From NCBI GenBank assembly GCA_021650915.1, contig CP091279.1, positions 1,860,001 to 1,892,000 of the forward strand: 32,000 nucleotides of DNA, in the 5' to 3' direction. The notes under the pieces are model-generated. The model saw nothing but the letters and a program-made list of their open reading frames with translations, did not search any database and was not told the DNA's origin. The translations under genes were made by a program, and so were the position numbers. This DNA is from Candidatus Brocadia sp. (lineage in GTDB: Bacteria; Planctomycetota; Brocadiia; Brocadiales; Brocadiaceae). Below, piece by piece: positions 4,738-32,000 of this stretch (its first letter is position 1; every line of letters starts with the position of its first letter).

Positions 4738-6648
4738 TTATTTCCTATGCAAATATTTCGGAGGTAGTGCCCCACGATATCTTCCTCCATCTTGACCTGG
4801 CCAACCTTTAGGTAAAGTAACGGCTCCTTCTGCCGCAGGACCATCAGGATCGGGATAATAATTGATATCCAATTGAGGATTGGCTTGGATACCAGAATTT
4901 TCAAACCCTTTAGCATATATTGATTTGGAAGATGTAAAGAAAGATGACTTCTTGAATACAGCTAAGGAATTAAAATTTCTTATGCTTAAGCCGTCACTAA
5001 AATTTTCAAAAATTGGATTTGTTAGTGGAGTTGAAGAGAAATAATATAAATTACCATCAAGTATCTGTGATCCATCTGCTACTCGCACTGACCTTGCGAC
5101 CATGTGGTTTGCTGTCTGAACGAAGATATTATTATAAACTTCATGAGGATTGCCAGGAAAAAATGTACTATAAGCATATTCATAGCCAGCACCCAAACGC
5201 ACCCAATTCCCATTACGTGCATCTGCCATCAAAATCGTATTATTGTATATTTTCCAAGGATCTCCTTGTCCGATGCCCCTGATGCCATGCCTCCCAAAGG
5301 GGGGGCCTGCGAGCATCCCATCGCCTGTCTTTTTCCATATAAATGATCCTGGACGGCTATGGAAAAATTTTCTCCTTGCATCGATGATATTATGATGAAT
5401 ATACTTTGTCCCTGGATCAAGCGGTGTCTGCCCTTGTTCTTGTCTTGACACACTCCTTGTTACATTTAGAAATCTGTTGTGGTCTATTTCAAAATGGTAG
5501 CCTCCCGAATTAATCTGCATTATGTCATCTACTATATTATCAAAAGTATTATTATGTACATGGAAATTATAAAGAATTCTATTAGTAACTATTCCATCAA
5601 ATAAATTCATAAAAGTGGAATTCTTTATTTCAATATCATGATTATTTTCACCCAAAATTAAAGGTGATAACTTCAAAGACCCTGCAACATAAGTAGTACT
5701 GTCACCCGGTGGACTTGTTTCAACTTTAACATCCGAATAACATATCCAAGGAGGAAAATAATCAATTATGGTAATCCCATCAAGCGTAAGGTGATGAGTT
5801 TCGCCGATAACCCGGATATGTGTTCTTCCGCCCAATATGTTGCAATTTTTTACTATAATATGATGGGCATAAGAATTGATTAATAAGGCATTTAACCCAG
5901 AACGGATAGCCAAGCCTTCCATATGAATATGAGATACTCCTCGGGAAATTTGGATAAATTCTCTGGATGGATAGAGATAAATCACTGTCTGTCGTGGATC
6001 AGTATTTGAGGGATAGAGATACCTTCTTTGCTCTTGGATATCGCTATGTTGCAGTCTTATAAATATTTTCTTTTTGGTAGGACTGTCACTTCTTTTGTCA
6101 TAATATACACCAGGTCCCACGTAAATATATCTGCTTTTAGAAAAATTCTCATTATCTGATGAAAAATCCCCATATCTGGCATAGGGAACTAATCGGTACT
6201 TATTATTGCCCTCCTGAAAATATCCCTGAATGTTAGCAATGCTAAAACTCCTTGAGGACACAAAAATCTTCCGTTTGGCGTCAACAACCTGCCATTCTGA
6301 ATTGGGGATGCTACGAAATTCTAGAAAATCCCCTGCATCTTCGAGTAAAGGAGTTTCTCCAGGATAATTTTTAATAGTGATGGGTTCTGCTTCTGTTCCA
6401 CTTCTGGAAAGGGTTATGTTGCTTTCAAGGTAAGTTCCACCACGCAGATATAACGTATCCCCTGGTTGCATTTTAGAGATACTTTTTCCTACGGTTTTCC
6501 AAGGGTTACTTATATTTCCCGTTTTCGCATCATTACCATTATTCGGATCGACATAGTATATATTCCCAAATGCCAAACTCTGTTCATAAGAAAAATGACT
6601 ACAGCACAAACTTGTACAAAGCATAAATAAAATAAGGAAAATATTCAT
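4738..6648 (-). CDS. Secreted right-handed parallel beta-helix protein (polysaccharide lyase / glycanase / C5-epimerase-like)
   Basis: 636 aa. Signal peptide 'MNIFLILFMLCTSLCCS'. 'YYVDPNNGNDAKTGNISNPWKTVGKSISKMQPGDTLYLRGGTY' is the usual N-terminal cap of DUF1565/pectate-lyase-fold proteins. There is a recurrent Asn-ladder of rungs: IVKNCNILGG, IEIKNSTF, HVHNNTFDNI, EIDHNRFLNV, IHHNIID, IYNNTIL, VYNNIFV. Confidence 0.7.
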   Translation of the reverse strand: MNIFLILFMLCTSLCCSHFSYEQSLAFGNIYYVDPNNGNDAKTGNISNPWKTVGKSISKMQPGDTLYLRGGTYLESNITLSRSGTEAEPITIKNYPGETPLLEDAGDFLEFRSIPNSEWQVVDAKRKIFVSSRSFSIANIQGYFQEGNNKYRLVPYARYGDFSSDNENFSKSRYIYVGPGVYYDKRSDSPTKKKIFIRLQHSDIQEQRRYLYPSNTDPRQTVIYLYPSREFIQISRGVSHIHMEGLAIRSGLNALLINSYAHHIIVKNCNILGGRTHIRVIGETHHLTLDGITIIDYFPPWICYSDVKVETSPPGDSTTYVAGSLKLSPLILGENNHDIEIKNSTFMNLFDGIVTNRILYNFHVHNNTFDNIVDDIMQINSGGYHFEIDHNRFLNVTRSVSRQEQGQTPLDPGTKYIHHNIIDARRKFFHSRPGSFIWKKTGDGMLAGPPFGRHGIRGIGQGDPWKIYNNTILMADARNGNWVRLGAGYEYAYSTFFPGNPHEVYNNIFVQTANHMVARSVRVADGSQILDGNLYYFSSTPLTNPIFENFSDGLSIRNFNSLAVFKKSSFFTSSKSIYAKGFENSGIQANPQLDINYYPDPDGPAAEGAVTLPKGWPGQDGGRYRGALPPKYLHRK

Positions 6649-8032: not shown

Positions 8033-9904
8033 CTAAAAATGTTTACTCCACCACCAAGACCATACAAAAATCAGCCACAATACCCTACTATTATCAAATT
8101 TTTCAGTTAAATGTTCTTTATATATAATATCAATAGGCTTAATATTTAAACCGCCTTTATTATGAGCGGTAGTAATTATGTCCCAAAACATATCTTTATA
8201 CTCGTTTCTAAACCATTCTCCTATGGGAATGTTAAAACCTTGTTTTCGTCGAATAAGAATTTTTTTGGGCAATAAATCACTGCATACCTCTAATAAAATT
8301 GCCTTTTTTTTACCATTTCTTAGTTTGAAATTCCCTGGCATCGAATTAACTAATTCTATAATCCTAAAATCTAAAAATGGGGAGCGAACTTCTAAACTAT
8401 TTTGCATACTTGCAAAATCTATCTTGGGAAGCATGTCACCCTCGAGGAGAATCGACTGATCTGTGTGCAGGATCTTATTTAATATGTCGTCTTCTTGTAC
8501 TTCTTGAAAAAGCTTTTCAATATCCGACCTGATAATATTTGTTGACACCTGTGTGATATTATTAATAACGTCATTCAAATTGGCACCGGTACTTAAACTC
8601 ATCCATTTCAAGTGTCTAAATACCGGATTTGTCTCAATTCCTGATAAGAAGCGTTTTATCCTACGATTATACTGCGTAAACGGGTTACGATAAGATGCAG
8701 GTAGGATATTTGACAAGTTTTTCAGAAAGGGATGTGCTATTTTTACCCACCATTTCTTCATGTAATACTCGCCCAAATATTTGCTATATCCTGCAAAAAC
8801 CTCGTCAGCTCCATCGCCAGAAAGCGCAACGGTAACATATTTTTTTACTTCTTTACACATAATATACGTTGGAATATAGGCTGCGTCAGCGAAAGGCTCG
8901 TCTAGGGAATCTAAGATATTCGGCAAAAAACTTTTTACTTTCTCAGGAGTAACCATGATTTCAGTATGATCTGTTTTGAATCTCCTTGATATAAGGCGAG
9001 CATATTTTGAGTCATCATTATAATTTACAAAATCATTGTATGCGACAGTAAAGGTTTTAACACTTCTCTTAGAAAACTGACTCATAAGCCCTACTACTAT
9101 TGAAGAATCGATTCCACCACTCAAGAATGCCCCCACAGGAACATCCGATAACAAGCGAATTTTTACCGCATCTTCGAGTTCTCTTCTAAGCAATAGCTTA
9201 CCAGTTTTCCAATCTTTAATTTTTTCAACCATTTGGTTCGGCTCATACCATTTTCTTAATTCACTTTTTCCATTTTTCCATTTTAAAAAATATCCACCGG
9301 GAAGTTTACAAATATTTTTCCAAATAGTACGAGGGGCATAATTATATCCGATTGTAAAATATACACTCACACTATCAAGATCTATGGTTTGATTTGAATA
9401 TAATTTCTTAATAGCCTTAATTTCTGAAGAAAAAACAACACCTCCCTTTGTTTCTTCATAAAATAAGGGTTTCACTCCAAATCTGTCTCTTGCTAAAACT
9501 AATTCCTTTGTCTGGCAATCATACCATGCTATGGCAAACATCCCATTAAATTTATTCAAAGCCTTTTCACCCCAATGTATCAAGGCTGCCAAAACCACTT
9601 CAGTGTCTCCAGAAGATTTAAAATGAATACCCTTTTTTGATAGCTCTTCCCGTAGTTCTAAAAAATTGTATACTTCTCCATTGTAGACCAATATGTGTCC
9701 TTTGTTTTCAGATAACATCGGTTGATGAGCCATTTCTGATAAGTCTATTATCGATAAACGTGTATGCCCAAAAATAGCATCTTTATCTCTCCATATCCCA
9801 CTATCATCAGGGCCTCTGTGTCTTATTGAATCTAATGCATTTAGAATATGATTATCTTCTATACTGTTGGCTATTGAACCGACTATTCCTAATATCCCGC
9901 ACAT
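8033..9904 (-). CDS. Asparagine synthase (glutamine-hydrolysing) family amidotransferase, EPS-locus type
   Basis: 623 aa. 'MCGILGIVG' is the N-terminal Cys nucleophile of class II GATase. 'VPVGAFLSGGIDSS' is the PP-loop SGGxDS motif. Confidence 0.9.
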   Translation of the reverse strand: MCGILGIVGSIANSIEDNHILNALDSIRHRGPDDSGIWRDKDAIFGHTRLSIIDLSEMAHQPMLSENKGHILVYNGEVYNFLELREELSKKGIHFKSSGDTEVVLAALIHWGEKALNKFNGMFAIAWYDCQTKELVLARDRFGVKPLFYEETKGGVVFSSEIKAIKKLYSNQTIDLDSVSVYFTIGYNYAPRTIWKNICKLPGGYFLKWKNGKSELRKWYEPNQMVEKIKDWKTGKLLLRRELEDAVKIRLLSDVPVGAFLSGGIDSSIVVGLMSQFSKRSVKTFTVAYNDFVNYNDDSKYARLISRRFKTDHTEIMVTPEKVKSFLPNILDSLDEPFADAAYIPTYIMCKEVKKYVTVALSGDGADEVFAGYSKYLGEYYMKKWWVKIAHPFLKNLSNILPASYRNPFTQYNRRIKRFLSGIETNPVFRHLKWMSLSTGANLNDVINNITQVSTNIIRSDIEKLFQEVQEDDILNKILHTDQSILLEGDMLPKIDFASMQNSLEVRSPFLDFRIIELVNSMPGNFKLRNGKKKAILLEVCSDLLPKKILIRRKQGFNIPIGEWFRNEYKDMFWDIITTAHNKGGLNIKPIDIIYKEHLTEKFDNSRVLWLIFVWSWWWSKHF

Positions 9905-10074: not shown

Positions 10075-10902
10075 CTAGTTAACCCTTCTCCATCCAGTCA
10101 ATGGACGCCCAAGCAGCTTTTCTACGTAAGCTATGTCTGGCTCAAATTCTTCAATCAAATTCCTTCTTATGTCAGGCTCTAATTTTGGGAGAACTCCCGA
10201 GGTGCTTGTATAGATTCGCTTCAAGCCGAGATTTTTAAAAAAATTAACGGGACTGTGTAGACGTCTGCCCCGCAGAAAATTTGCCATACTATTGCAAAAC
10301 CGAGACAATGATGGGAATACTGTATACGAAGCAATATTTACATGTTCCTCTGCCAAAACCGGCAAGGGTACATCATCAATTCCAATAAAATTGTATACCT
10401 GTTTCAATACTTGCCCGGGAAAAGCTGCAATATCGTCTTGCAAAATAATAAGAACATGTTCTTTCCCAAATATCTCCAACCATCTGCCCAAGTGCATGCG
10501 ATAGCGGCTGGATTCGATAATCCTTGGCATATGCATAATGGCTTCATGAAACTCACATCTTAATTCACCGTATAATTTATAATGTAAATATAAAGAAAAG
10601 CTGCGAGATGCTGGATCTCGAAGAGTAATAATGATGCGGCAGTTTTGATTATGTCGATAAAGCCTTGCTGCTGCTTCTGGTACATCAAAATAAGTAGGAC
10701 CTATCTCAGCGCAAAATTGACTATTCATACAATATCGAAAGTGTGTCCAATACCACGACCAACCTTTATCGAATCGTTCGTCAAAGAAAAAAGTTTCTTT
10801 TGTACCTTGTGGAAAGCAGAGTTGTGGATGTTCTCGCAAGCACCTATCAAGCCACGTTGTGCCTGTTTTTTGTGGCCCCACACCGACAACTTTTAGTTGC
10901 AT
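10075..10902 (-). CDS. Sulfotransferase (PAPS-dependent, Sulfotransfer_1-like)
   Basis: The track ORF runs to 11034, but its first 44 codons lie in a palindromic repeat. The likely start is ATG 10902 ('MQLKVVGVGPQKTGTTWL'). 5'-PSB loop 'PQKTGTT'; 3'-PB motif 'ITLRDPASRSFS'. Confidence 0.8.
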   Translation of the reverse strand: MQLKVVGVGPQKTGTTWLDRCLREHPQLCFPQGTKETFFFDERFDKGWSWYWTHFRYCMNSQFCAEIGPTYFDVPEAAARLYRHNQNCRIIITLRDPASRSFSLYLHYKLYGELRCEFHEAIMHMPRIIESSRYRMHLGRWLEIFGKEHVLIILQDDIAAFPGQVLKQVYNFIGIDDVPLPVLAEEHVNIASYTVFPSLSRFCNSMANFLRGRRLHSPVNFFKNLGLKRIYTSTSGVLPKLEPDIRRNLIEEFEPDIAYVEKLLGRPLTGWRRVN

Positions 10903-10921
10903 AAAAACATCCTCATTATTT

Positions 10922-11074
10922 TGTAACACTTTAGTTTTTTGAAAAATTACCATAATAACGATGTTGCCGCACGGTGTAGGGGCGAAGCATTTGCCATAAA
11001 TTGGCATACATGGATTCACACCCCAAGCAGGCAAATGCTTCGCCCCTACCTTTTCAAAAAACTAAAGTGTTACA
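10922..11074. repeat. 153-bp nested palindromic (MITE/REP-like) element in the GT2-sulfotransferase spacer
   Basis: Outer arms 10922-10945 (tgtaacactttagttttttgaaaa) and 11051-11074 are a perfect 24-bp inverted repeat. Inner arms 10976-10995 (gtaggggcgaagcatttgcc) and 11030-11049 are a perfect 20-bp inverted repeat with a 34-nt loop. Confidence 0.85.
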
Positions 11075-12034: not shown

Positions 12035-13385
12035 GAGACCTGAGAAAAGTCCTCCAATGTATAGTTGTCACGCATCAAAGCCGTTGTAGTAATAGGCAAG
12101 CCGAATTTTGGTAACGTTCAGCGCCCCGGCAACACTCCATTTGCTCACATTCACCCGCAGGTTAACCGTACGCATGACGCGCTCTACTTTACTTGTCGTT
12201 CTGCCATTGAGCCTCTTTTCTATCGCCGTAAACATATCAGGCCTGGCATTCTCAAGATAGGATGCGGTATGAGTATATCCCTTCGACAAACAATGCTGAA
12301 TCACCGCATCCAATCGTTTCCTCTTGGACTCTATCATTTTCTCGATGGTCTTCTGACAATCAACCAATGGCCGTATCGCACAGACCTCCATAAGCTCCGA
12401 CATCACCTCCAGCCATTCTTTCCCCTTGCTCTTGACCCCATCTTGCCACAATACATACTTTGCCTGATACGGAATATGCCACAAACATCTCTGTACAAGC
12501 ACCTTGATCTTACCTTTCAAACTATCCAAAATAGAGGTGTCTCCATCGGTTATCAAAAGAAACTGGGAAAACTTCCTGAACACCTTAACACTCTTACCAA
12601 ACAGCGTATCCCAACTACCGTTGTAATCCCCTATGTCAAGCCCTGCCACTCTCACCCCTCCACCTCTTATATTGCACAAAGACCTTGAGCTCCTTGCCTC
12701 GTTTTGCTATCCCCTTAATCCCTACCCCTGTCCCGTCTGCTTCTCCCAGGGGAAGTCCCTTCTCGTCGAGTTGAAAATCTATCTCTGCTGCCGTCTTTTG
12801 TACCGATTTCCATATCGTCATCTTGTCTACTGTCCAGCCAAACATCGACACGATCTTCTTCGCTACCCGGTAGGTCGTTAACGATCCTACCAGCCCAAGC
12901 TTCCGATACGTCTCCGGTGGTATTCGCTTCATCCGCTCCATCCCCAGAAGCTTTCGCGTTATATACATCTTATGACCGCACCTCTTGCACTGCACCTGCA
13001 ACTGCTCTAATCTCAACCACTGAAAGACCGTCAGTATCTTCGTCTCTTTTCCATGCCTCGTCTTCCAGATAAACTCCTTGTCATTCCCACATTCGTCGCA
13101 GCAAAATGGCTTCCGTGATTGCGCCATCGCACTCTCACCAAAACCAACCACGATCTTCTGAATAAAATCCCTTAATATCTCCGGCAGTATCTTGCAAAAT
13201 GCCTTGAGAATCGACTCCAGGCTGCCGTCCTTTAATTCAACCCGAATTTGACAACCAAATTCTATTGTGATACCATCTGTGCATGGGGTTGCTCCCATAT
13301 AGCCCTCCTTTTCTTTATGGTTTAGTTTCTTGTATCAAAACTATTTTTTACCATATTTGGAGGGCTTTTTCTTTAACCAAGTCTC
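12035..13385 (-). mobile_element. IS element with imperfect ~30-bp terminal IRs; zinc-finger plus DDE transposase of ISLre2/ISKra4/UPF0236-like architecture (family tentative)
   Basis: The left end 12035- (gagacctgagaaaagtcctccaatgtat) aligns with the reverse complement of the right end 13385- (gagacttggttaaagaaaaagccctccaaatat), with one 4-5 nt indel. The transposase has an AGGAGGG RBS at about 13303-13310. Confidence 0.6.
12068..13298 (-). pseudogene. Transposase split into two overlapping ORFs (12636-13298 and 12068-12679) by a +1 frame change with no slippery run
   Basis: ORF1 contains 'CDECGNDKEF..CKRCGH' (CxxC..CxxC) and 'GEADGTGVGIKG'. ORF2 contains 'LLITDGDTSILD' and 'VQRCLWHIPYQAKY'. 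The join reads ..KVFVQY / NIRGGGVRVAGLDIGDY.. . Confidence 0.65.
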
Positions 13386-13699
13386 TCTTTTTCTACTCTA
13401 CCAAGTAATTTGTACCGAATTTCAGCAATATGCAGGATAAAAAATAACCGTTACATGAATTTCTCCGTGATTTTCGCTATTTTCACAAATTACGGACGCA
13501 GTATCTCCGTAATGAGTAGTTTTTCTTTCATACTATGGAGCAGGTATCGATTATAAGAATCCCCGAACAAACCGAAATAATCTGTCTTCAGACTGCTGAA
13601 ATACTTCTATAAACCGGTGCAACGAAGGGAGACTCACCCGGAAACCTCTGCCGTATCTGAAGACCTTACAGGGAATCTTAATCAGGAATTTTTGATGGT

Positions 13700-14553
13700 C
13701 TTCAAGCTCCTTGTTTTCCACACATCTTCCAGAATCTGCAGATGAAACACTGAACGATGTTGTAGGTAATGCATTTCATGATCATAAATGCGTTGTTTGC
13801 AGACTCCCGTGAGTGCGCTTTGTCAATATAGAACTCATAGCTTCGCTCTTTGATAAAATTCTCTACCTGACAGCCTGAATTGTAGGCACGAAAGATTTCC
13901 TCTTTGGTCTCATTGTCATCGGCATGGGTAACAATCGACTCGTACTCATACGAAGGCGGTAGCTCAAAGAGTGATTTCTAGTGTTTGCCTTTGTTCTGAC
14001 AGGGACGAGTTTCCTTATGACGACAAATCTCCGTTCCTTACCCCCGGCATCAGGGCGATAGTACGCCACGGCCAGATCAAAGGGTGTACCCTCAATATGG
14101 GTAAACGGTTCTTCTGGAATACGAGCAAAGCAACTTTGCATCTTTGGATTTACCATGACCTTGAGGTAATACGCAATAGTCTGCTGTTGCCTCAAGGAAT
14201 AACCAAGGGTCTTCAGAGAAGAACCCCGTACCCGGCTGAGCCAGCAGTCTTTGGGAAGCAGGGCTATGGTTTTCCCGATGAAGGTGCGAAGTCTGTCTTT
14301 GTGATGACTCTCCCGTCGTAGAGCTGGAAATTGATTAACCAGCCCGTATTGTACAGGAATGCCACTTTGGGCTGAAAACTCGGGATGTCATGTTTTTGGG
14401 ATTATATCCAACCTCTGTGTTCTCCTGATGCCCATAAACGGTGTTATACTCTAAGGGTTCATAAACAATGATTTCTGGCGTTTTACATAACTTTTGTTCA
14501 CATGAATGGTTAAAGTGTTTCAAAAATCACATTTTGTGAACTCTCCGAGTATA
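13700..14553 (-). mobile_element. Degenerate IS1380-like (DDE_Tnp_1_6-type) element; outer end at 14553, inner/left boundary uncertain
   Basis: The transposase is broken over three frames. One frame reads 'GKTIALLPKDCWLSRVRGSSLKTLGYSLRQQQTIAYYLKV'. ORF 13863-14195 reads 'FARIPEEPFTHIEGTPFDLAVAYYRPDAGGKERRFVVIRK'. About 13745-13975 reads 'YEYESIVTHADDNETKEEIFRAYNSGCQVENFIKERSYEFYIDKAHSRESANNAFMIMKCITYNIV', the C-terminal E/K signature region. The terminal 109 bp recur at 2211-2319. Confidence 0.6.
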
Positions 14554-14770
14554 TGTTGACCTCGAGTCGTTGAGTAATCAAAGGCTCTATAAGGCAAGGA
14601 TGGCACATTACAATTCCCATCTTTCTTTGAATACCAGACTTGTTTAAAGGCAGATGGAGGATTCCGAAAAGTTTCTTTCCTTCATGGTGGAAGAAAAAGG
14701 CCTTTTCATGTAAATTATCTTCTTGATCAACCCGATTTGAAAACTGGTCTAGTTTTAATAATTTGTTCAT
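14554..14770 (-). pseudogene. Truncated third alpha/beta-hydrolase copy (paralogue of 15704-16642) cut by the IS1380-like end
   Basis: 'FSNRVDQEDNLHEKAFFFHHEGKKLFGILHLPLNKSGIQRKMGIVMCHPCLIEPLITQRLEVNI' parallels residues ~16-79 of the 312-aa protein. Similarity stops exactly where the IS terminus (tatactcggagag..) begins at 14553. Confidence 0.8.
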
Positions 14771-14784
14771 CCCATAATTTCAAA

Positions 14785-16771: not shown

Positions 16772-17803
16772 TCATTTCTCTCTTAGTACATTATTAGCCT
16801 CAATTTTTTTATGAGGTGCCCAAATTCTCCGTGTAAATTTCAATAAAGTACTCCGAAGAATTAAATTTACCCAACTATGAAGTAGCGCTAAATAACGACG
16901 ATACCTAGGTGGGGGTGGCATGAAATCAAATTCCAGATCATACCCATATGTCATCAGCGTGTTCCACATATACAATTCTAACGCTTTCCGCTGATCCTGT
17001 TTTAAAGTCTTCTTATATCCACCAACTGAATCAGAAAAAATTGGCTTTGCCACATTACCGTGATGCTTTATATTAGAGGCCGTTTGTGCATCTGAACTAG
17101 CATAATATTGCAACATCGATTCTTCATAATTTATTTTTAAATAATTACAAATTGTTAAGAGAGTCTTTTTTGGATCAGAGACTAAATCTTCATATCGAAC
17201 GGTCATAACCCTATCAGGTCCAAAATACCTTTCTGCAAGCATTCCATTTAATACACACTCATTCCATTCCAGAGAGATATCAGCAAGATTCGTTCCTCCC
17301 AATTTCGCCCTTAGCGCTGAAACTGCCACATCACGCCCATCACGTACTATATTTATGAACTTAGATATAGGGAATAGTTTTCCAAGGAATATGATAGAAT
17401 TCACATAGAGCGGAGTTTTGTCGCCCCATATCTCAACGGTGCTTTTCGTGTTAAAATAGGCATTAATATTCATAACTATATCTTGAAATGTCCGTTTCTT
17501 TAATCTTTTTATTATCACTTCAGCAGATGGTAATTTTTCCCATCCATGCACTCTTCGCTTTAAATATTTGTTTATTTCATGTAACAATGTAAATAAATTG
17601 CTATCTATTGAAAGATCACCGAATGCATTCAATTGTGCACCAAAGATTGGTATATATCCTGTTTCTCCCCCTATGTATATCTTAGAATGTGCGTTTAAAA
17701 TAAGACGTAAAAGCGACGTACCTGAGCGATAGCACCCCACAACAAAAAGAGGTGCATTACAATCAAGTGCATTTACCCTATTATCAGATTCCATGGTTTC
17801 CAT
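16772..17803 (-). CDS. Sulfotransferase (Sulfotransfer_3/Stf0-like), paralogue A
   Basis: 343 aa. 5'-PSB loop 'VVGCYRSGTSLLRLIL'; 3'-PB 'NIVRDGRDVAVS'. Confidence 0.8.
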   Translation of the reverse strand: METMESDNRVNALDCNAPLFVVGCYRSGTSLLRLILNAHSKIYIGGETGYIPIFGAQLNAFGDLSIDSNLFTLLHEINKYLKRRVHGWEKLPSAEVIIKRLKKRTFQDIVMNINAYFNTKSTVEIWGDKTPLYVNSIIFLGKLFPISKFINIVRDGRDVAVSALRAKLGGTNLADISLEWNECVLNGMLAERYFGPDRVMTVRYEDLVSDPKKTLLTICNYLKINYEESMLQYYASSDAQTASNIKHHGNVAKPIFSDSVGGYKKTLKQDQRKALELYMWNTLMTYGYDLEFDFMPPPPRYRRYLALLHSWVNLILRSTLLKFTRRIWAPHKKIEANNVLREK

Positions 17804-17897
17804 ATTCGACCAAATTTATCCATTTAAATAGTCTAGACTTGGCTATTCTTTCATTGCACCCACCTCATTGATGAGACGTTAATCTTTTTCATACATA

Positions 17898-18944
17898 TCA
17901 CTTAGCAACTCTTTTACGAAAGAACCAAGATCTACGTACCAATTTCTTTGGAGCACCCCGAAGCAATAACTTTACACAACTATGAAATAGCGATAAATAG
18001 CGATAATGTTTAGGTGGAGGCGGCAGGAAGTCAAACTCTAAATCGTACCCATATGTCTTCAGCGTGTTCCACATATACAACTCTAATGTTTTACGCTGAT
18101 CTTGTTTTAAAACTTTCTTATATCCACCAACTGAATCTGATGAAATTGGTTTTATAACATTACTATGATGTTTTACCTTGGAAAGTGCTTGTGCATCTGA
18201 AGTTGCATAATATTGGGTCATTGATTCTTCGTAATTAATGTTTAAAAAATCACAAATCATTAGTAAAACTGTTTTTGGATCAGAGGCTAAATCTTCGTAT
18301 CGAATGGTTTTAACCCTTTTGGGTCCGAAATACTTCTCTGCAAGCATCCCATTTAATATACACTCATTCCATTCCAGAGAGATATCAGTAAGATTCGTTC
18401 CACCCAATTTCGCCCTCAACGTTGAAACAGCTACGTCACGCCCGTCACGTACCATATTTATGAATTTAGACCTAGGGAATAGCTTTCCAATGAACAGTAT
18501 GGAATTCACATAGAGCGGGGTTTTATCGCCCCATATTTCAATGGTACTTTTCGTATTAAAATATGTATTAACATGCATAACTATGTCTTGAAATGTCCGT
18601 TTCTTTAACCTTTTTACTACTTCTTCGATGACCGGTAGTCTTTTCCACCCATATACAATTCGTTCTAACTGTTTATTTATATCCTGTATCAAAGTAAATA
18701 AATTGTTATCTTCTGAAAGATCACCATACTTATGTAAGTTTGCACCAATGATTGGTATATATCTCGTTTCTTCCGGAATACATATTTTAGAGTGTGTGTT
18801 TAAAATGAGGCGCATAAGCGTAGTACCAGAGCGAGAGCACCCGACAATAAACAGGGGCGCATCCCTGTCAAGCGTATTTATCATAGCACTGTATCTTTCA
18901 TGTTCGAATAAACCTATCCAAGTAAATGGTCCAGACTTGACCAT
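17898..18944 (-). CDS. Sulfotransferase (Sulfotransfer_3/Stf0-like), paralogue B
   Basis: 348 aa. 'IVGCSRSGTTLMRLIL' and 'NMVRDGRDVAVS'. Collinear with paralogue A and identical at most positions by eye. The alternative ATG at 18884 ('MINTLDRDAPLF') would remove the overlap with the upstream gene. Confidence 0.8.
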   Translation of the reverse strand: MVKSGPFTWIGLFEHERYSAMINTLDRDAPLFIVGCSRSGTTLMRLILNTHSKICIPEETRYIPIIGANLHKYGDLSEDNNLFTLIQDINKQLERIVYGWKRLPVIEEVVKRLKKRTFQDIVMHVNTYFNTKSTIEIWGDKTPLYVNSILFIGKLFPRSKFINMVRDGRDVAVSTLRAKLGGTNLTDISLEWNECILNGMLAEKYFGPKRVKTIRYEDLASDPKTVLLMICDFLNINYEESMTQYYATSDAQALSKVKHHSNVIKPISSDSVGGYKKVLKQDQRKTLELYMWNTLKTYGYDLEFDFLPPPPKHYRYLSLFHSCVKLLLRGAPKKLVRRSWFFRKRVAK

Positions 18945-19885
18945 TCGTTCGTTACGATTCTTTTAAAGTAAAAACTGTCTTGCTTCACATGATTGTATCC
19001 GCGAATATTCAGTAAACAGGATTGAAATCCTGTTTTTTTAAAATGGTCGATCAATCCATACGCACAATCGTTATGACCACCAAAAGGAAATGCAAAATGG
19101 ACACAGGGTTTCCCAATCTGGTTTTCAATAATCGATTTACTCCGGTCTATTTCTTGCTTCGCTTCTTCAAGAGGCAATCTTGACAAAGAGCGATGAGTGA
19201 CACCGTGAGCGCCGATTTCCATACCGCACACACTCATTCGCTTTGCCTGTTCCCAAGAAATACCACAATCTTGTCTGATATCTGTTAATTTATTTGTTGA
19301 ATGCTTTCTCAAAAACCCTGTGACTTCCTGTATTTTATCAACGGTTATTGATTTCATACTATCAATGACACGTACGGCAAAAGATAATCTCGGTTCATGC
19401 ATTCTTTGTTCAAGTAATTTATTCTCTATTTCAATGCTATGAGTATCGGTACAGTCCCTCATCACTAGGGTGAAAACTTCCCAATCCCACACAGGTTCAT
19501 TCTTGCCAACATAATCTGTAGTCAGAAAAAATGTGGCGGGCAATCCCCTTTCTCTTAAAATGGGAAACGCCACCTCATAATTATCCCAATATCCATCATC
19601 AAATGTTAGTACAACTTGAACCTTTGCTTTTGCCTGTCCTGTGTGACATTGGTTTATTGCATCGGTTAATGAAATTATCGGATACCTTTTCCTTAATATA
19701 TCGATCTGTCTAATAAACGTTTTTTCGGTTATCACGGTATTCCTAGAATTAAATCGTACTTCTGGCAGCACACGATGATATAACAAAATTAAAAGTTTGT
19801 TTTTTTGATCAGTAAGTTTATTTTTCCAGTGGTTTACTCTATAAATAAGATTTTTTGCTGTAGTTTTTATCAAAATACTTTCCAC
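18914..19885 (-). CDS. Polysaccharide deacetylase (NodB homology domain)
   Basis: 323 aa, GTG start. 'VVLTFDDGYWDNYEVAFPILRERGLPATFFL', 'MEIGAHGVTHRSL', 'HFAFPFGG'. Confidence 0.85.
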   Translation of the reverse strand: MESILIKTTAKNLIYRVNHWKNKLTDQKNKLLILLYHRVLPEVRFNSRNTVITEKTFIRQIDILRKRYPIISLTDAINQCHTGQAKAKVQVVLTFDDGYWDNYEVAFPILRERGLPATFFLTTDYVGKNEPVWDWEVFTLVMRDCTDTHSIEIENKLLEQRMHEPRLSFAVRVIDSMKSITVDKIQEVTGFLRKHSTNKLTDIRQDCGISWEQAKRMSVCGMEIGAHGVTHRSLSRLPLEEAKQEIDRSKSIIENQIGKPCVHFAFPFGGHNDCAYGLIDHFKKTGFQSCLLNIRGYNHVKQDSFYFKRIVTNEWSSLDHLLG

Positions 19886-25357: not shown

Positions 25358-27949
25358 TCATTTTCGCTTATAATAAAAATAATAATCAGGTACTATCTTT
25401 GCCTGATTCAGGATAGCTCCAATTATATTTGTTTTGGCTTCTTTCATGCATTCTGTAACCCTATTGATACGATCAATGGACACCTGGCCTGATTTTATCA
25501 CGAATATTACACCGTCAACCAAAGAAAGCAAAGGTGTTACATTATTCAACGTATCCAGTAATGGTGGGGCATCTACAAGTATGACATCATACCTCTGTTT
25601 CAAAATATCTAAAAACTTTGCAAAAAGTGCAAAATAAAGCGGCCCATCTGGTGTTGTACGTCCTATCCCGGCAGGCAAAAGGGATAAATTTGGTTCATTC
25701 ACTGGCTTTATATAGGAAAAGACTTCATTTTCTAATAAGCGGCTCCCAGACATACGACTCAAACGACTGATAATTGGCGTGTAATCCTCTTCAAAGTAAA
25801 TCCTTTTATCTTCATATCTTTCTATTCTGCCCGGTTCAAAAGTAAAAGTTCCCTGTTTCCAGCTAAATAATTTCTGAAGACGCTCCTCTATTTGCAGTTT
25901 TAAAGGACCTTGCAGTTGCTCTTGATTAATGTATCCGGCATTGATGAGGATGTAACCTAATGGTTGTCCCGTTCGCTGGTTTCGCTCTAAAGCATCTTTG
26001 AGCTGATCTTCTGTAATAAAACCGCCACGCAAAAGCATATTACCTAATCCATTTGAAACTGGATTATCCTGACTTTGAATGTGGAAGAAACGACCATTCA
26101 CGAAGGCGGCAGTCATGGTTTGCGTGTCATTTCTGATAGTAAGCTGTCCGCTTTGTTTTTTAAGGGCTATAAGGGAAAAAAGATCATCAACACTGTATTT
26201 GCTTAATGTCCCCTGTCGTATTTCATGAGACATAACGCCCTTCATTGCATTAACCAAGCCACTCTCCTTGCCATTTTTTACTGCAAACAAATGGTGTAAA
26301 GTTGGTCGATCGAGGTCAGCATCTACCATAAGTACGCGCAATCCGCCACATGCTAAACTAATGGCTGATTTTGCCAAGACGGTAGTTTTTCCCTCACCAG
26401 CAGCTGTACTTTCTACCAGAAGTACCTGTCCAGATGTTCCAAGTTGCATTAAAGGCAATTTTGAAATGAATCCACCAGAGATAGCATATTGATTATAACC
26501 TTCCCGACGTTTATTTTGATTGTTATGAGACTCGCCCGCTGATAAAGCAAGCGACTTGTTTCCCTTCAAAGATTTATCATACGGCAGTATACCAAGCACT
26601 GACAATCCTAACCGTCTCATGATATCTTCTGGAGTCCTTATCGTCTTGTCCATATATTCAAGGAAAAAACAAAGCCCTATACCAAACGTCGAACCCAGTA
26701 GAGCAGACAAAAAAATATTTAAAAATATTTTTGGTTTAGCTGGAGAAAGCGGCACCTCAGCCTCGTCCACAATACGGATATTATTCCTCTCCATGTTCCC
26801 AGTAAGATTAATCTCTTTTGCATGTTTAAGAAGAATATCATATATTTCCTGATCACCTTCCGCCTCTAATTTCAACATGTCATAATTGATAGCTTTTTCA
26901 CCATGGGAAACTATCGGTCTCTGCGTATCCCGAATTTGCTGTGTAGACTTTTCAAGAGCTACAATCCGATCCAGTTCTGCCTTAAGAGTCTTTCTTATTG
27001 CCTCTACCTCATTGATAATATCCTGCTCCAATTGTTTAATACTGGAATTAATTTCGATCATTTTCGGATGCTTGGGACCGTACTTGGTAGCAAATTCCGA
27101 TCTCCGTGTCTTGAGTTCACTCAATTTGCTATAGAGCCCTTGAATGACGGTACTTCCCGAGATTTCTGGCAAGGAAAACAGATTTTTGTCATCAATAGAA
27201 AATGCCCTGAGTATCTCGTATTTGTATTCATAAACCTCTCGTTGAGATGTTCCTACTTTTGTTTTCTGATCCCTAATTTGTGTTTTAAGCCATTCTATTG
27301 CTTGCTGAGAGAATAAATGCTGCATTTGCATATTTTTAGCAATAAACGCATGGGCATGTGCGTTAGCAACGCGCGCAGCGATTTCAGGCGATTGGCTTAT
27401 GAAGTTAATATTGACGAGATTAGTCCCTGAAATGGGGATAATCATAAGATTCGACAAATACCAGTCAACAATCCAGGCTGGGTACGGTGGAACAAATTTT
27501 TCTGAAGCCTCTTGAGGAATATTTGATATGCCAATCTCTGATGAAGCGGAAGGTTTGACAGATGTGTTAGAAGATACAGCCAAATTGTCTGAATTTTGAG
27601 TTTCAGAAATGCCTAGTTCTCTCCAGAGTTTTAACTCTTGAATGACGTCTTTTGCGAGATTTCTGCTCATTAGTAAATTATATTGTGTTTGATAATAATC
27701 CTGATCAATGGTATTTGTCGCCATTACATCTGCCATTTCATTTATAAAGGAAGATTGTCTTTCAATAATGATCTGTGTGGCGGCTTTATAGAGAGGGGTT
27801 GTAGAAAATGAGACGATAGTTACGGCACATACTACAATGAAAAGGAAGATAATGGCTACCCATTTACGCTTTCTTATGATGTCGATATAATCGGTTAGAT
27901 GCGCTTGCTGTGGAAATAATTTTTGGTTTGATGGAAGCTCAAGATTCAT
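25358..27949 (-). CDS. Fused polysaccharide co-polymerase (Wzz/GNVR) and bacterial tyrosine autokinase carrying an inserted DUF4388/T2SSE_N-like module
   Basis: 863 aa. TM1 is aa ~30-50, followed by a periplasmic coiled-coil region. 'NNIRIVDEAEVPLSPAKP' is followed by TM2 at aa ~408-430. Walker A is AAGEGKT (516-522), Walker A' VLMVDADLDRP (539-549), Walker B YDVILVDAPP (787-796). The C-terminal Tyr cluster is DYYFYYKRK. Confidence 0.85.
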   Translation of the reverse strand: MNLELPSNQKLFPQQAHLTDYIDIIRKRKWVAIIFLFIVVCAVTIVSFSTTPLYKAATQIIIERQSSFINEMADVMATNTIDQDYYQTQYNLLMSRNLAKDVIQELKLWRELGISETQNSDNLAVSSNTSVKPSASSEIGISNIPQEASEKFVPPYPAWIVDWYLSNLMIIPISGTNLVNINFISQSPEIAARVANAHAHAFIAKNMQMQHLFSQQAIEWLKTQIRDQKTKVGTSQREVYEYKYEILRAFSIDDKNLFSLPEISGSTVIQGLYSKLSELKTRRSEFATKYGPKHPKMIEINSSIKQLEQDIINEVEAIRKTLKAELDRIVALEKSTQQIRDTQRPIVSHGEKAINYDMLKLEAEGDQEIYDILLKHAKEINLTGNMERNNIRIVDEAEVPLSPAKPKIFLNIFLSALLGSTFGIGLCFFLEYMDKTIRTPEDIMRRLGLSVLGILPYDKSLKGNKSLALSAGESHNNQNKRREGYNQYAISGGFISKLPLMQLGTSGQVLLVESTAAGEGKTTVLAKSAISLACGGLRVLMVDADLDRPTLHHLFAVKNGKESGLVNAMKGVMSHEIRQGTLSKYSVDDLFSLIALKKQSGQLTIRNDTQTMTAAFVNGRFFHIQSQDNPVSNGLGNMLLRGGFITEDQLKDALERNQRTGQPLGYILINAGYINQEQLQGPLKLQIEERLQKLFSWKQGTFTFEPGRIERYEDKRIYFEEDYTPIISRLSRMSGSRLLENEVFSYIKPVNEPNLSLLPAGIGRTTPDGPLYFALFAKFLDILKQRYDVILVDAPPLLDTLNNVTPLLSLVDGVIFVIKSGQVSIDRINRVTECMKEAKTNIIGAILNQAKIVPDYYFYYKRK

Positions 27950-27982: not shown

Positions 27983-28573
27983 TTAGAAATACCGTCCTGG
28001 CACCCGAATAATGTCGTCGGGCATTACAATATCGTCCATTTTCGCCTTGAACTCCTTTTCTACGCCATCTTTTTTGCGGACAATAATCGCGCGCTTAGGA
28101 GAGGCGCGCTCAGTCTGTCCACCTGCCATAGAAATCGCTTGCCTTACCGTCAATTCTCTTTCCCATTTATGCTCACCTGGGTTTATTACTTCCCCAGTCA
28201 CAAATATTCTTTGTTTCTTATATTCTTTTAAGCTAACCTTCACTTGAGGTGCAATCAAATAACCATCAGCCAATTTTTTCTCAATAATGTTTTCAAGCTC
28301 AAATATCGAAAGACCGCTTGCATGAACCTTTTCAATAAAAGGAAAACTGAAATCTCCTTGCTGTGAAACTTCAACAGTACAGTTTAAGTCATCATTATCC
28401 CACACTTTTATATCTAAAACATCCCCTACATTTATAATGTATTCATCCTCAAGGTTTGCTGCGCACAGCGTCAAAGACGATACAAGAAACATGCTTATGA
28501 GAAAAGGAGTTATAAACGCTACTCTCCTGCTTAATGCATTACCCATATAATATCTGATTTTTTTAAAAATCAC
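27983..28573 (-). CDS. Wza/EpsE-like outer-membrane polysaccharide export protein (Poly_export + SLBB)
   Basis: 196 aa. 'YIINVGDVLDIKVWDNDDLNCTVEVSQQGDFSFPFIEKVHASGLSIFELENIIEKKL' followed by 'RIFVTGEVINPG'. An N-terminal signal sequence is present. The track start is GTG 28573; ATG 28546 is an alternative. Confidence 0.85.
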   Translation of the reverse strand: MIFKKIRYYMGNALSRRVAFITPFLISMFLVSSLTLCAANLEDEYIINVGDVLDIKVWDNDDLNCTVEVSQQGDFSFPFIEKVHASGLSIFELENIIEKKLADGYLIAPQVKVSLKEYKKQRIFVTGEVINPGEHKWERELTVRQAISMAGGQTERASPKRAIIVRKKDGVEKEFKAKMDDIVMPDDIIRVPGRYF

Positions 28574-29134: not shown

Positions 29135-30115
29135 TCATTGACCTCTCTGAAACAATACCGTTGATATCGTTTTTAAAACAATAAGGATATCAAAAAAGAT
29201 GGATTGATTTTGAATATAATATAGGTCGTACTCAAGCTTCTCAACCTGACCTTCTTCAGTACCGAAATAACCTCCTTGCACCTGTGCCCAACCGGTAAGT
29301 CCTGGTTTAATAAGAAAACGAAGTCGATAATGTGGAATATCCTTGGCTAATTTTTCAGCAAAATACTTGCGTATGGGACGTGTCCCAATAAAACTCATTT
29401 CTCCTTTTAGAACATTAAATAATTGAGGTAGCTCGTCAAATCTTATTTTACGCAATAATTTACCAATTTTTGTAATTCTCGGATCATTTTTGTCGGCCCA
29501 TGTTGGGCCAGTAACTTTTTCTGCATCGTTGATCATCGTACGGAATTTTAGCAAAGTAAATGGCCGCTCATGCAGCCCCAGACGTTCTTGTTTAAAAAAA
29601 ACCGGACCTTTTGATGACACCTTAATAACTAAGGCTATAAGCAGCACAAATGGCAATGACGCAATTATTCCAACTAACGATAAAAAGATATCCATACATC
29701 TTTTTGCAATTTTGTATAACGGGGGATTAAATTTTTCCCCCTGATTACGAAATAAAAACCACTCATCCTTAGCATAATGTATGGGCGCCTTCTCTGTAAG
29801 TGCTTCATAAAAATAAAGGGAATCATAAATGGTAACATTAGCAAATTTTATTTCCAATAACTGTTTTCTTAGTACAGGAAAATTCTCGAGCCTATGCGAA
29901 ACAACTACCGTACCAAACTTGTTTTCTCGGATTATGCTGAGAAGACTTTTCAACGACTCTGAACCATCAATACAAACTGTTCCAGATTTCTCTGAATAAT
30001 TTTTCATTACCGACAAGTCATAAGTTTTTAAATACTTACGGTCTCTAAGTAGAGACTCGATCTCATTTATTAGGGAATCATTACCCAGAAGAAGAACCTT
30101 TTGCTTCGTAAACAT
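29135..30115 (-). CDS. Initiating polyprenyl-phosphate glycosyl-1-phosphate transferase (bacterial sugar transferase family)
   Basis: 326 aa. 'KRCMDIFLSLVGIIASLPFVLLIALVIKVSSKGPVFFKQERLGLHERPFTLLKFRTM' and 'DELPQLFNVLKGEMSFIGTRP'. First gene of the co-directional array. Confidence 0.9.
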   Translation of the reverse strand: MFTKQKVLLLGNDSLINEIESLLRDRKYLKTYDLSVMKNYSEKSGTVCIDGSESLKSLLSIIRENKFGTVVVSHRLENFPVLRKQLLEIKFANVTIYDSLYFYEALTEKAPIHYAKDEWFLFRNQGEKFNPPLYKIAKRCMDIFLSLVGIIASLPFVLLIALVIKVSSKGPVFFKQERLGLHERPFTLLKFRTMINDAEKVTGPTWADKNDPRITKIGKLLRKIRFDELPQLFNVLKGEMSFIGTRPIRKYFAEKLAKDIPHYRLRFLIKPGLTGWAQVQGGYFGTEEGQVEKLEYDLYYIQNQSIFFDILIVLKTISTVLFQRGQ

Positions 30116-30543: not shown

Positions 30544-32000
30544 TAGTGTCTGAACGAAAACGCACTTTTTGTAAAAGTGCGAGGTCGATTTTCTATTTAC
30601 CAATAGATAATTTTAAGATTTGAGATTAGGGTTTTTGGCAAAAATACTGTTCTTTTACATATTTCCCTTGTTTTCCCCTTTATTTTAGCCTTGTCTGGGC
30701 GTACCTGCCTCCCGGCAGACTGTTTTTCTTCGTGTTTTTTGCTTGCTTAGGCGGCTTTTCGCAACTTTTCGCACTGCTTCCGTGCCTTCTCCTGCAGCAC
30801 GTTTCCCAGCTTGTGCAAATTCGCAGCTAACACGCCCATTGCACAATATCTTTTAAAGGCATGCAGCCCTTTGTCCGGACACCTATCCAAGCCGTGATGC
30901 TCCAAACGATTGATATCCGATTCTACCGCCGAGTGCTTGTGCCTTAGCTTCTTAAATGTCTTACCCGATTCCTCTTCCTGTTCCGCCTTATTCTTCTTGC
31001 CCTTCTTGGGAAGGATTACCTCTGGTATATACAAACTCAGCAACTCTTTATTCTCTTTCTTGTAAAAACCTTTATCAAAACTTATACTCTTTATTGTGCC
31101 TTCTCCGTAACGGCTCAACAACCTATCTGCCAATGGAATTACCAACGATACATCCGCCTGTTTTTCTCCTACCACATGGTCCACGATGAAACCCCACTGA
31201 TCGCTTGCTACCAGAATATTATGTCCCAACTCTACCCTTTTGTTTGACTTGCCTTTGTACAGCCACTCCGTATGCGGCTCAAACAACGAATGAACCTTTT
31301 CTGCCGCCGGTATTACCTCATCCCGGATCACCCTTCTCTCCACCAGGTCTATCTGTTTATTCAACATCCCGTGAAAATACTCCAGTGTCCCTATTTTCCC
31401 TGCATGCTTGTCTACCTGGTTCGTCGTTAGCACCTTTTCGTAGATGGCTAACAGACTCGCTCCTATCTTTTCACTCAAACCCCTCGATAATTCCAAGTAA
31501 CTCCTCACATGCTCTTCCTTGTTTTTCCCCCCCGCTGCTTGACGCCTTTGCGCTTATCCTCATCAGCTTTTTTAACTCTCTCCTCCAATATTTGCTCTTG
31601 CGCCATCCTTTCCCCGCCAGGATGCCTTCCTCTATTGCATCCTCTATCATGTCCAGACTCTTGCGTCCCGCATCCCACAATAAATTCATATCGGCGGAAA
31701 GTGTACATTCGTCTCTAACACATACGTATCCACCTTAATACACAGTCCTTCGTCCTTTTTTTTAACCAACTGATGCCCCGATGATATCACCACTTCATTT
31801 ATCTGCCTGAGGGTCTCCTCATCCAACAATCTTATATTGTCCTTGATGCTCTGCATCGAAAAAACCTTCGCCTCTCCAAATGCCGTCTCAACCCCCATTA
31901 TCTGCCTGATAAGTTTGTGATGGTTGGCAAAATCCTCCAACCTGTCATAATCGGCATCTAACCCTAATCTTACCACCGACAACACCAAAATATGCCATAA
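30544..32000 (-). mobile_element. ISNCY-type insertion sequence, copy 2 (runs off the right edge)
   Basis: The end 'tagtgtctgaacgaaaac' at 30544 matches the 2051 end of copy 1. Segment 30546-30704 is homologous to 2053-2210. The orientation is the same as copy 1. Confidence 0.75.
30747..32000 (-). pseudogene. ISNCY-type transposase broken by two frameshifts, 5' partial
   Basis: There are three consecutive frames. Frame 1, to 31686: 'LWHILVLSVVRLGLDADYDRLEDFANHHKLIRQIMGVE..DTYVLETNVHFP'. Frame 2, 31471-31689: 'NLLWDAGRKSLDMIEDAIEEGILAGKGWRKSKYWRRELKKL'. Frame 3, 30747-31508: 'EYFHGMLNKQIDLVERRVIRDEVIPAAEKVHSLFEPHTEWLYKGKSNKRVELGHNILVASDQWGFIVDH..SFDKGFYKKENKELL..LRHKHSAVESDINRLEHHGLDRCPDKG'. 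Confidence 0.8.

Follow-up and report, generated by a model that had tools for sequence, protein, structure and literature searches.

The synthase-dependent exopolysaccharide (EPS) systems BcsA-PilZ, Pel, PGA and NfrB are under direct post-translational control by cyclic di-GMP (c-di-GMP). According to a 2025 review, direct activation by c-di-GMP is found only in synthase-dependent systems, and the Wzx/Wzy pathway is regulated by the phosphorylation cycle of its polysaccharide co-polymerases of the PCP-2a and PCP-2b types. A bacterial tyrosine kinase (BY-kinase) joined to an MshEN_N motif is on record, however, as the supplement of Wang et al. (2016) lists Methylobacillus EpsG, a proposed chain-length-determinant tyrosine kinase, as 'MshEN_N - AAA_31' and as a predicted c-di-GMP target, next to an MshEN-HD-GYP-REC-DUF4388 protein. 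The thought that c-di-GMP might act on a BY-kinase is thus not new, and our literature searches found no experimental test of such an input. Here we describe a Wzc-like co-polymerase/kinase of 863 residues encoded on the minus strand of a 32-kb window, by which we mean the whole stretch of 32,000 nucleotides analysed from contig CP091279.1 of Candidatus Brocadia sp., numbered from its first letter. A DUF4388/PATAN domain, itself carrying a tandem MshEN_N motif, splits the P-loop domain of this kinase. The novelty lies in where the motif sits and how it is nested, within a PATAN domain that in turn interrupts the P-loop fold of a full-length Wzc-like protein.

PATAN domains commonly hold two helical-hairpin repeats, termed the alpha-clip, which the literature relates to the N-termini of type II secretion and type IV pilus ATPases, and they are known by experiment as protein-interaction and output domains, not as sensors. 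The MshEN receptors of c-di-GMP are built on a published 24-residue motif, RLGxx(L/V/I)(L/V/I)xxG(L/V/I)(L/V/I)xxxxLxxxLxxQ, in which guanine specificity comes from the backbone amides at G3 and the next residue.

A PATAN domain within the P-loop fold of a Wzc-like kinase

The 863-residue protein (coordinates in Table 1) shows the layout of a PCP-2a-type co-polymerase, with two transmembrane-like stretches, a periplasmic Wzz/GNVR region and a Poly_export gene directly upstream. The top 40 Foldseek matches of the whole model comprise only CapB, Wzc, Etk, VpsO and BceF, with a probability of 1.00, and among the NCBIfam profiles EpsF, eps_transp_fam and Wzc match in part. Walker A is present as AAGEGKTT at residues 515-523 (GEGKT at 518-522) with the catalytic Lys521, its columns G37, K38 and T40 being at least 90% conserved in our alignment A1. 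Walker B is present as ILVDAPP at residues 790-796, columns D310 and P313 being invariant in the same alignment, and the tail DYYFYYKRK carries four tyrosines. Walker A' (VDADLDRP, residues 542-549) keeps both aspartates, with the arginine displaced by one position (DxDxDR versus hhhhDxDxR); judged by eye, close relatives have DxDx[Q/F/L]R and canonical and stand-alone relatives have DxDxRKP. The EX2RX2R oligomerisation motif before Walker A is absent from the 863-residue protein and from the anammox/Desulfobacterales subtype of the family, and present both in canonical CapB-type kinases and in stand-alone insert-bearing kinases. By its motifs and fold, the protein is thus a Wzc-like BY-kinase, and autophosphorylation is predicted. 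An initial sequence-only reading of this DNA had located Walker A, Walker A', Walker B and the tyrosine tail correctly and had taken the kinase motifs to be intact, which is upheld for the Walker A lysine, the Walker A' aspartates, Walker B and the tyrosine cluster.

The same reading had proposed that extra residues split the kinase P-loop domain, and two alignments bear this out. A phmmer comparison with PDB sequences pairs CapB residues 83-138 with residues 508-565 and CapB 157-266 with residues 752-860, leaving between these halves about 18 CapB residues against about 187 in the 863-residue protein. An alignment of 48 sequences shows one clean gap in CapB-type kinases opposite residues ~573-738. 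The limits first given to the insert, residues ~580-745 (580-745 being exactly 25715..26212), need to be moved, as the alignment puts its start about 7 residues earlier and gives an insert of ~166 residues (~573-738, ~25736..26233) placed after the Walker A' helix. Two helices lead back from the insert into the kinase, the second of which (RLLENEVFSYI) is the counterpart of the short helix before the NLxxLPxG strand in ordinary BY-kinases.

The assignment of the insert to DUF4388/PATAN (PF14332), also made in the sequence-only reading, is upheld by Pfam, which matches residues 579-710 with 80.7 bits in the whole protein and 85.2 bits in the insert alone (E = 1e-22; gathering cutoff, 25 bits). 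The match lays 132 residues on only 98 profile positions (1-98 of 122) and therefore implies an extra segment inside PATAN; ordinary PATAN proteins show the same stretched mapping. AlphaFold2 gives the insert a topology of one beta strand, a helix, three beta strands, four helices and a further beta strand, followed by the two return helices, with a predicted local distance difference test score (pLDDT) of 86.2 for the insert alone, and a pLDDT of 85.9 and a predicted template modelling score of 0.82 for the kinase with its insert. The AlphaFold monomer check suggested at the outset thus returns a confident separate fold (pLDDT ~86), and in these models the insert is a discrete domain. A Foldseek search of the insert model against the PDB found no significant solved relative of the PATAN beta part. 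Altogether, the protein is a three-level nest, kinase[PATAN[alpha-clip/MshEN_N]].

The alpha-clip as a tandem MshEN_N motif

The most informative feature of the insert, absent from the sequence-only reading, is that its alpha-clip (residues 634-686) is a tandem MshEN_N motif. Motif 1 (residues 634-657) reads GLGNMLLRGGFITEDQLKDALERN and motif 2 (residues 663-686) reads PLGYILINAGYINQEQLQGPLKLQ; the 5-residue spacer QRTGQ (residues 658-662) separates them, and every position of the glycine/hydrophobic skeleton (L2, G3, h6-7, G10, h11-12, L17, L21) is present in both. The NCBIfam family NF053729, 'MshE-related cyclic di-GMP-binding motif', matches residues 635-681 at 54-60 bits (cutoff, 38), and NCBIfam also reports similarity of the insert to the C-terminus of NfrB. 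When the insert was compared with PDB sequences by phmmer, it matched the N-terminal GSPII/MshEN domains of PilF, MshE and PilB, and the Foldseek targets of the alpha-clip are 5htl, 8pdk, 9gl5 and 8pfa. Its four helices superpose on c-di-GMP-bound MshE (5htl) and on PilF GSPII-B with a root-mean-square deviation of 0.7-1.2 Å over ~52 columns, at 36-39% identity.

Conservation follows the motif closely. Among 31 close relatives, G3 is kept in all 31 in both motifs, L17 likewise in 31/31 and G10 in 28-30/31, while the motif-2 position-24 Gln, Gln686 in the 863-residue protein, is found in 29/31. The motif-1 position-1 Arg is present in 26 of the 31, and in 32/32 other species genomes with a parsable motif. 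G3 and the following residue, the source of guanine specificity in MshEN, are retained in the alpha-clip. The alpha-clip, with 70% mean pairwise identity, ranks first in conservation among the cytoplasmic segments, the kinase halves reaching 47-52%.

Distribution of split kinases and the exopolysaccharide cluster

An initial search gave ~59 clusters at 90% identity that combine a P-loop with DUF4388. We then relied on an exhaustive insert-profile search against 1.84 billion representatives, a word-indexed protein search with the insert alone having reached only close relatives, and obtained 24,648 matches at E <= 0.001 and 130 at E <= 1e-30. Classification of the best 150 profile matches with kinase-half profiles revealed at least 42 split kinases (clusters at 50% identity) among them, with inserts of 170-195 residues; ~27 of the 42 are full-length (850-930 residues) and ~15 are stand-alone cytosolic proteins (~400 residues). 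The other matches are ordinary PATAN proteins with an N-terminal PATAN, REC-PATAN or multi-PATAN arrangement. Database labels for the family are generic ('DUF4388 domain-containing protein', 'polysaccharide biosynthesis tyrosine autokinase', 'Mrp family ATPase').

A survey of species-representative genomes, run with 8 close sequences as query and covering the anammox/Desulfobacterales subtype only, returned 36 loci with the nested architecture. At each locus a single open reading frame (ORF) holds the periplasmic co-polymerase region, the kinase N-half, the module and the kinase C-half, and at most of the 36 the gene directly upstream is Wza-like. All anammox genera are represented (Brocadia, Jettenia, Kuenenia, Scalindua, Anammoxibacter and Loosdrechtia), as are the Desulfobacterales, through Desulfosarcina variabilis (complete genome), Desulfatitalea, Desulfosudis and Desulfobacterium; further loci come from a single Deferribacteres metagenome-assembled genome (MAG), a single Nitrospirae MAG and a few short contigs in otherwise-labelled MAGs. 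The nested architecture is therefore a family spread across at least two phyla.

Copy number varies within this set. A Desulfatitalea locus (L035) carries two tandem paralogous copies, the Scalindua genome SCAELEC01 has three loci (L018, L022 and L027), and a Desulfobulbia copy (L040) is broken by a frameshift. Several genomes hold two to three paralogous insert-bearing kinases, presumably one per EPS cluster.

Neither chance nor an assembly/fusion artefact accounts for the architecture, as contigs in 29 blocks of independent assemblies carry exactly this protein and its ORF structure recurs at the 36 loci. The identical protein is also found in GCA_000987375.1, listed among anammox genomes.

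Table 1. Positions of the co-polymerase/kinase gene, its parts and two neighbouring genes in the 32-kb window (aa, amino acid residues; TM, transmembrane stretch; AF2, AlphaFold2)
Feature	Position	Strand	Evidence
PCP-2a-type polysaccharide co-polymerase fused to BY-kinase (Wzc-like), whole gene, 863 aa	25358..27949	-	ORF; Pfam Wzz, GNVR, AAA_31/CbiA/ParA, DUF4388
Wzz (chain-length determinant) domain, aa 18-106, with TM1 inside (aa 30-51)	27632..27898	-	Pfam PF02706, 38.9 bits; hydrophobic stretch 30-51
GNVR domain (aa 359-429) that extends into TM2 (aa ~412-430)	26660..26875	-	Pfam PF13807, 53 bits; hydrophobic stretch 412-430
Kinase N-half, aa 508-572: Walker A, Walker A', helix GLVNAMKGV	26234..26428	-	Aligns with CapB 83-138, also Wzc/Etk
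PATAN N-terminal beta-alpha-beta-beta-beta part, aa 578-630	26060..26218	-	Pfam DUF4388; AF2 secondary structure, pLDDT >90
Alpha-clip / MshEN_N-type four-helix bundle, aa 634-686	25892..26050	-	NCBIfam NF053729; phmmer to PilF, MshE, PilB N-termini; Foldseek
C-terminal PATAN strand GTFTFE (aa 701-706) with linker; aa 696-722	25784..25864	-	AF2; 'LQKLFSWKxGxF' conserved in alignments
Two return helices, aa 723-746	25712..25783	-	AF2; CapB-type alignment picks up again at 'ENEVFSYIKPV'
Kinase C-half, aa 747-855: NLSLLPAG turn, Walker B	25385..25711	-	Aligns with CapB 157-266, VpsO, BceF, Wzc
C-terminal Tyr cluster YYFYY (Tyr 856, 857, 859, 860)	25370..25384	-	Sequence; aligns with CapB tail 'SYYHYY'
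Wza-like outer-membrane polysaccharide export gene (Poly_export + SLBB), upstream conserved neighbour	27983..28573	-	Pfam
Initiating phosphoglycosyl transferase (Bac_transf)	29135..30115	-	Pfam PF02397, 224 bits; same position in GCA_000987375.1

A single long Wzx/Wzy EPS cluster on the minus strand, lying between transposase genes, makes up the window. Besides the genes in Table 1, the cluster encodes three nucleotide-sugar epimerases/dehydratases, Wzx, Wzy, a GT2 and a GT4. Genes for a deacetylase, two alpha/beta hydrolases and three sulfotransferases are also present, along with those for an AsnB-like amidotransferase and a Chondroitinase_B-like beta-helix protein. The sulfotransferases, the deacetylase and the AsnB-like and Chondroitinase_B-like genes together predict a sulfated, heavily modified heteropolysaccharide; sulfotransferase, polysaccharide deacetylase, AsnB-like and Chondroitinase_B-like genes lie at 4738-6648, 8033-9904, 10075-11034, 16772-18944 and 18914-19885. 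No cognate phosphotyrosine phosphatase (low-molecular-weight protein tyrosine phosphatase or PHP type) and no HD-GYP gene was recognised in the 32-kb window, nor was a phosphatase gene recognised within 8 kb at the 36 related loci, and an Rfam scan of the window returned no family matches.

The flanking transposases, at 321-1864 and 30747-31508, are of the helix-turn-helix plus DDE_3 (IS630-like) and DDE_Tnp_1 types, and GC content falls to 31-35% around the Wzy region (6-10 kb), which is typical of horizontally exchanged glycan clusters. Two consecutive ORFs of 220 and 203 residues, with CxxC...CxxC motifs, no Pfam match and a local GC peak of 0.478, mark the region made up of 12068-13298 (minus strand) and 13299-14784; after them come ~1.5 kb in which no long ORF is present and a short fragment at 14510-14770 resembles the start of the adjacent alpha/beta-hydrolase genes. 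This stretch looks like a mobile-element insertion with a pseudogene scar in the EPS cluster.

Candidate control by c-di-GMP and comparison with known systems

We put at about even the chances that the PATAN/alpha-clip module is ligand-responsive, most likely to c-di-GMP, and that, spliced in beside the Walker A' helix, it modulates ring assembly/autophosphorylation and, through it, polymerisation and export. A Wzc-like inner-membrane co-polymerase would have acquired a complete regulatory module directly after the Walker A' helix, the switch-I equivalent, and the alpha-clip would bind its ligand, most probably c-di-GMP, like its homologues in MshE, PilF and NfrB. Lying between Walker A' and Walker B, the module would hand on the ligand-induced change to nucleotide handling and/or to the subunit contacts in the kinase ring, and this would shift the autophosphorylation/dephosphorylation cycle by which Wzy-dependent polymerisation and Wza-dependent export are gated. 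EPS output in the Wzx/Wzy pathway would thereby come under post-translational control by c-di-GMP. The loss of EX2RX2R goes with a well-kept alpha-clip, which fits an insert that may have taken over part of the inter-subunit function. Reviews describe anammox bacteria as using c-di-GMP to promote EPS production and granulation. It is tempting to speculate further that the alpha-clip could be a working c-di-GMP receptor and the family the first c-di-GMP sensor inside the catalytic domain of a Wzx/Wzy co-polymerase/kinase; this we advance tentatively, as a possibility and not as the expected outcome.

A number of observations weigh against c-di-GMP as the input. Neither motif of the 863-residue protein has the Arg or Lys that defines position 1 of MshEN_N and stacks on guanine: in motif 1 the Arg is lost to Gly634, and motif 2 has Pro663, as Pro is found in 27/31 relatives. 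Position 24 of motif 1 is Asn657, the relatives having N or H in 30 of 31. Related deviations have been costly in PilF GSPII-A, where Ser at motif-2 position 1 abolished c-di-GMP binding and His at motif-1 position 24 needed reversion to Gln; even the full consensus, once restored in full-length GSPII-A, was not enough for binding, so that context matters. Motif 1 is degenerate in the stand-alone subtype, with G3 changed to A or V. The NF053729 scores place the 863-residue protein (60 bits) with both the binder NfrB (55 bits) and the non-binder GSPII-A (53 bits), MshE scoring 87. Although the tandem MshEN_N motif lends the 'sensor-type' label of the sequence-only reading a concrete candidate ligand, PATAN itself is known from experiment as a protein-interaction and output domain, and our literature searches found no paper on c-di-GMP binding by any PATAN domain or alpha-clip. 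GGDEF/EAL genes were found neither in the window nor within 8 kb of the kinase at the 36 loci, in a regular-expression search that is in itself uninformative.

We rejected the NF053729 score as a predictor of binding, since a known non-binder scores like known binders.

Some of the deviations are nonetheless seen in a functional receptor. E. coli NfrB binds c-di-GMP with a dissociation constant of 1 μM, and either L490A or G491L costs it its function. In the first NfrB motif, position 1 is Pro and position 24 is not Gln, and it follows that one such deviation per domain is tolerated. The relaxed search pattern of Wang et al. likewise admits Asn at position 24. The Gly at the motif-1 Arg position is a different matter, being confined to the 863-residue protein among more than 60 family members examined. 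Its codon (26048-26050) is GGA, versus AGA/CGN elsewhere, one transition from AGA, and the identical protein in 29 assembly blocks shows the allele to be real. Given this Arg-to-Gly change, the affinity of the 863-residue orthologue for the candidate ligand is probably reduced relative to other orthologues, and this protein may be a weakened or ligand-independent variant.

Among the best profile matches, a set biased to good matches, the alpha-clips of non-kinase PATAN proteins are nearer to the canonical MshEN motif than the kinase-embedded ones. The non-kinase PATAN proteins P0163-P0266 hint that PATAN domains may in general be c-di-GMP effectors.

The main alternative, in our view less likely than not, is that PATAN serves here in protein-protein interaction or assembly and not as a nucleotide sensor. 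It would either bring a partner to the co-polymerase (a glycosyltransferase, Wzx/Wzy, a phosphatase, an MglA-like GTPase or a PilB-type ATPase) or supply ring contacts that replace EX2RX2R, the alpha-clip being conserved as a contact surface. Precedents exist in PixE, whose PATAN suffices for membrane localisation and for binding of the PilB1 N-terminal domain and PilC, and in PilF, where the non-binding alpha-clip of GSPII-A has been proposed as a 'landing pad' for partners. The absence of EX2RX2R and the shifted Walker A' Arg in the anammox/Desulfobacterales subtype, where canonical and stand-alone kinases keep both, would suit a replacement of ring contacts; against this alternative, no partner gene besides Wza is consistently linked at the 36 loci. 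A loss of nucleotide binding would agree with the deviations at motif positions 1 and 24, and R634G is tolerated in the 863-residue orthologue; yet NfrB binds c-di-GMP despite comparable deviations, and it is specifically the residues contacting the ligand in MshEN that are kept invariant in the alpha-clip (G3, G10, L17, L21, the motif-2 Gln and, in 32/32 genomes, the motif-1 Arg). Sensing and interaction are also compatible, since ligand-gated partner binding is possible.

Two further explanations are made less likely by the pattern of conservation. The alpha-clip could sense another small molecule, such as a different cyclic dinucleotide, a nucleotide-sugar or a pathway precursor, through altered specificity residues. 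That the deviations are themselves conserved (P in 27/31, N/H in 30/31) points to derived specificity rather than decay, and constraint in the domain is strongest at the alpha-clip, but G3 and the next residue keep the backbone positions for guanine contact and no MshEN_N with a different ligand is reported in the MshEN literature surveyed; we regard this explanation as improbable. A decayed or pseudo-kinase carrying the insert as a tolerated passenger without a regulatory role is very improbable. In its favour, the subtype lacks EX2RX2R and departs from the canonical Walker A' (DxDxDR), and C-terminal tyrosines are few or missing in several members of the family. On the other side, the 863-residue protein retains Lys521 of Walker A, the aspartates of Walker A', Walker B and its four-Tyr tail, insert length is fixed at 170-195 residues, the insert is better conserved than the catalytic core across phyla, and the frameshifted L040 shows what genuine decay looks like.

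If control by c-di-GMP through the insert is correct, a c-di-GMP-type module in the kinase would join two regulatory mechanisms in one polypeptide and provide a post-translational switch of EPS export for anammox bacteria and sulfate reducers. Anammox-based nitrogen removal from wastewater depends on EPS-based granules, and c-di-GMP has repeatedly been correlated with anammox aggregation without a known effector. Sulfate reducers of the Desulfosarcina type form consortia, and Desulfosarcina variabilis is cultured and has a complete genome, which makes the hypothesis testable. The wider question is whether PATAN domains are generally c-di-GMP effectors; by extension, thousands of PATAN/DUF4388 proteins would then be unrecognised effectors. 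The two-level domain nesting at a switch-I-proximal loop of a SIMIBI-class NTPase may also serve thinking on allosteric engineering.

The sequence-only reading was aware of no description of this architecture. Our literature searches found no paper describing a BY-kinase with a PATAN insert, and to that extent this view stands, but the arrangement is not unique to this gene, belonging to a family of at least 42 clusters, and a related joining of MshEN_N to a BY-kinase, in EpsG, had been catalogued in 2016. EpsG likewise combines a BY-kinase P-loop with an MshEN_N motif in an EPS pathway, and the N-terminus of its profile (TIGR03029) matches the MshE motif. It is, however, a stand-alone cytosolic kinase with a bare N-terminal MshEN_N, whereas here the motif sits within PATAN inside the P-loop fold of a full-length co-polymerase. 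Against TIGR03029 the 863-residue protein scores 63.5 bits (cutoff, 313.8) with its C-half alone aligned, and it is not a member of EpsG.

Like Wzc, Etk, CapAB and VpsO (PCP-2a and PCP-2b), the protein has a Wzz plus GNVR periplasmic region, two transmembrane segments, a P-loop kinase and a tyrosine cluster, and its gene stands beside a Wza-like exporter in a Wzx/Wzy cluster; unlike them, it carries a separate domain of ~166 residues between the Walker A' helix and the NLxxLPxG strand, lacks EX2RX2R and has DxDxDR instead of DxDxR in Walker A'. With the PATAN domains (PF14332) of PixE, PixG, PatA and myxobacterial and other proteins, the insert shares the order beta-alpha-beta-beta-beta, alpha-clip, beta and the two-repeat helical insertion. 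Those domains, in contrast, are terminal, stand-alone or linked to REC or other signalling domains, none being described inside an enzyme fold, and the targets known for them belong to the type IV pilus motor rather than to polysaccharide machinery. Compared with the MshEN receptors, namely V. cholerae MshE, T. thermophilus PilF GSPII-B/C and E. coli NfrB, the alpha-clip, a candidate c-di-GMP binder, differs in having Gly and Pro for the position-1 Arg and Asn at motif-1 position 24, and in lacking the MshEN_C/T2SSE_N1 subdomain. It nevertheless shares with them the two 24-residue motifs, the 5-residue spacer and a superposition of ~1 Å, and NfrB, too, controls an exopolysaccharide machine.

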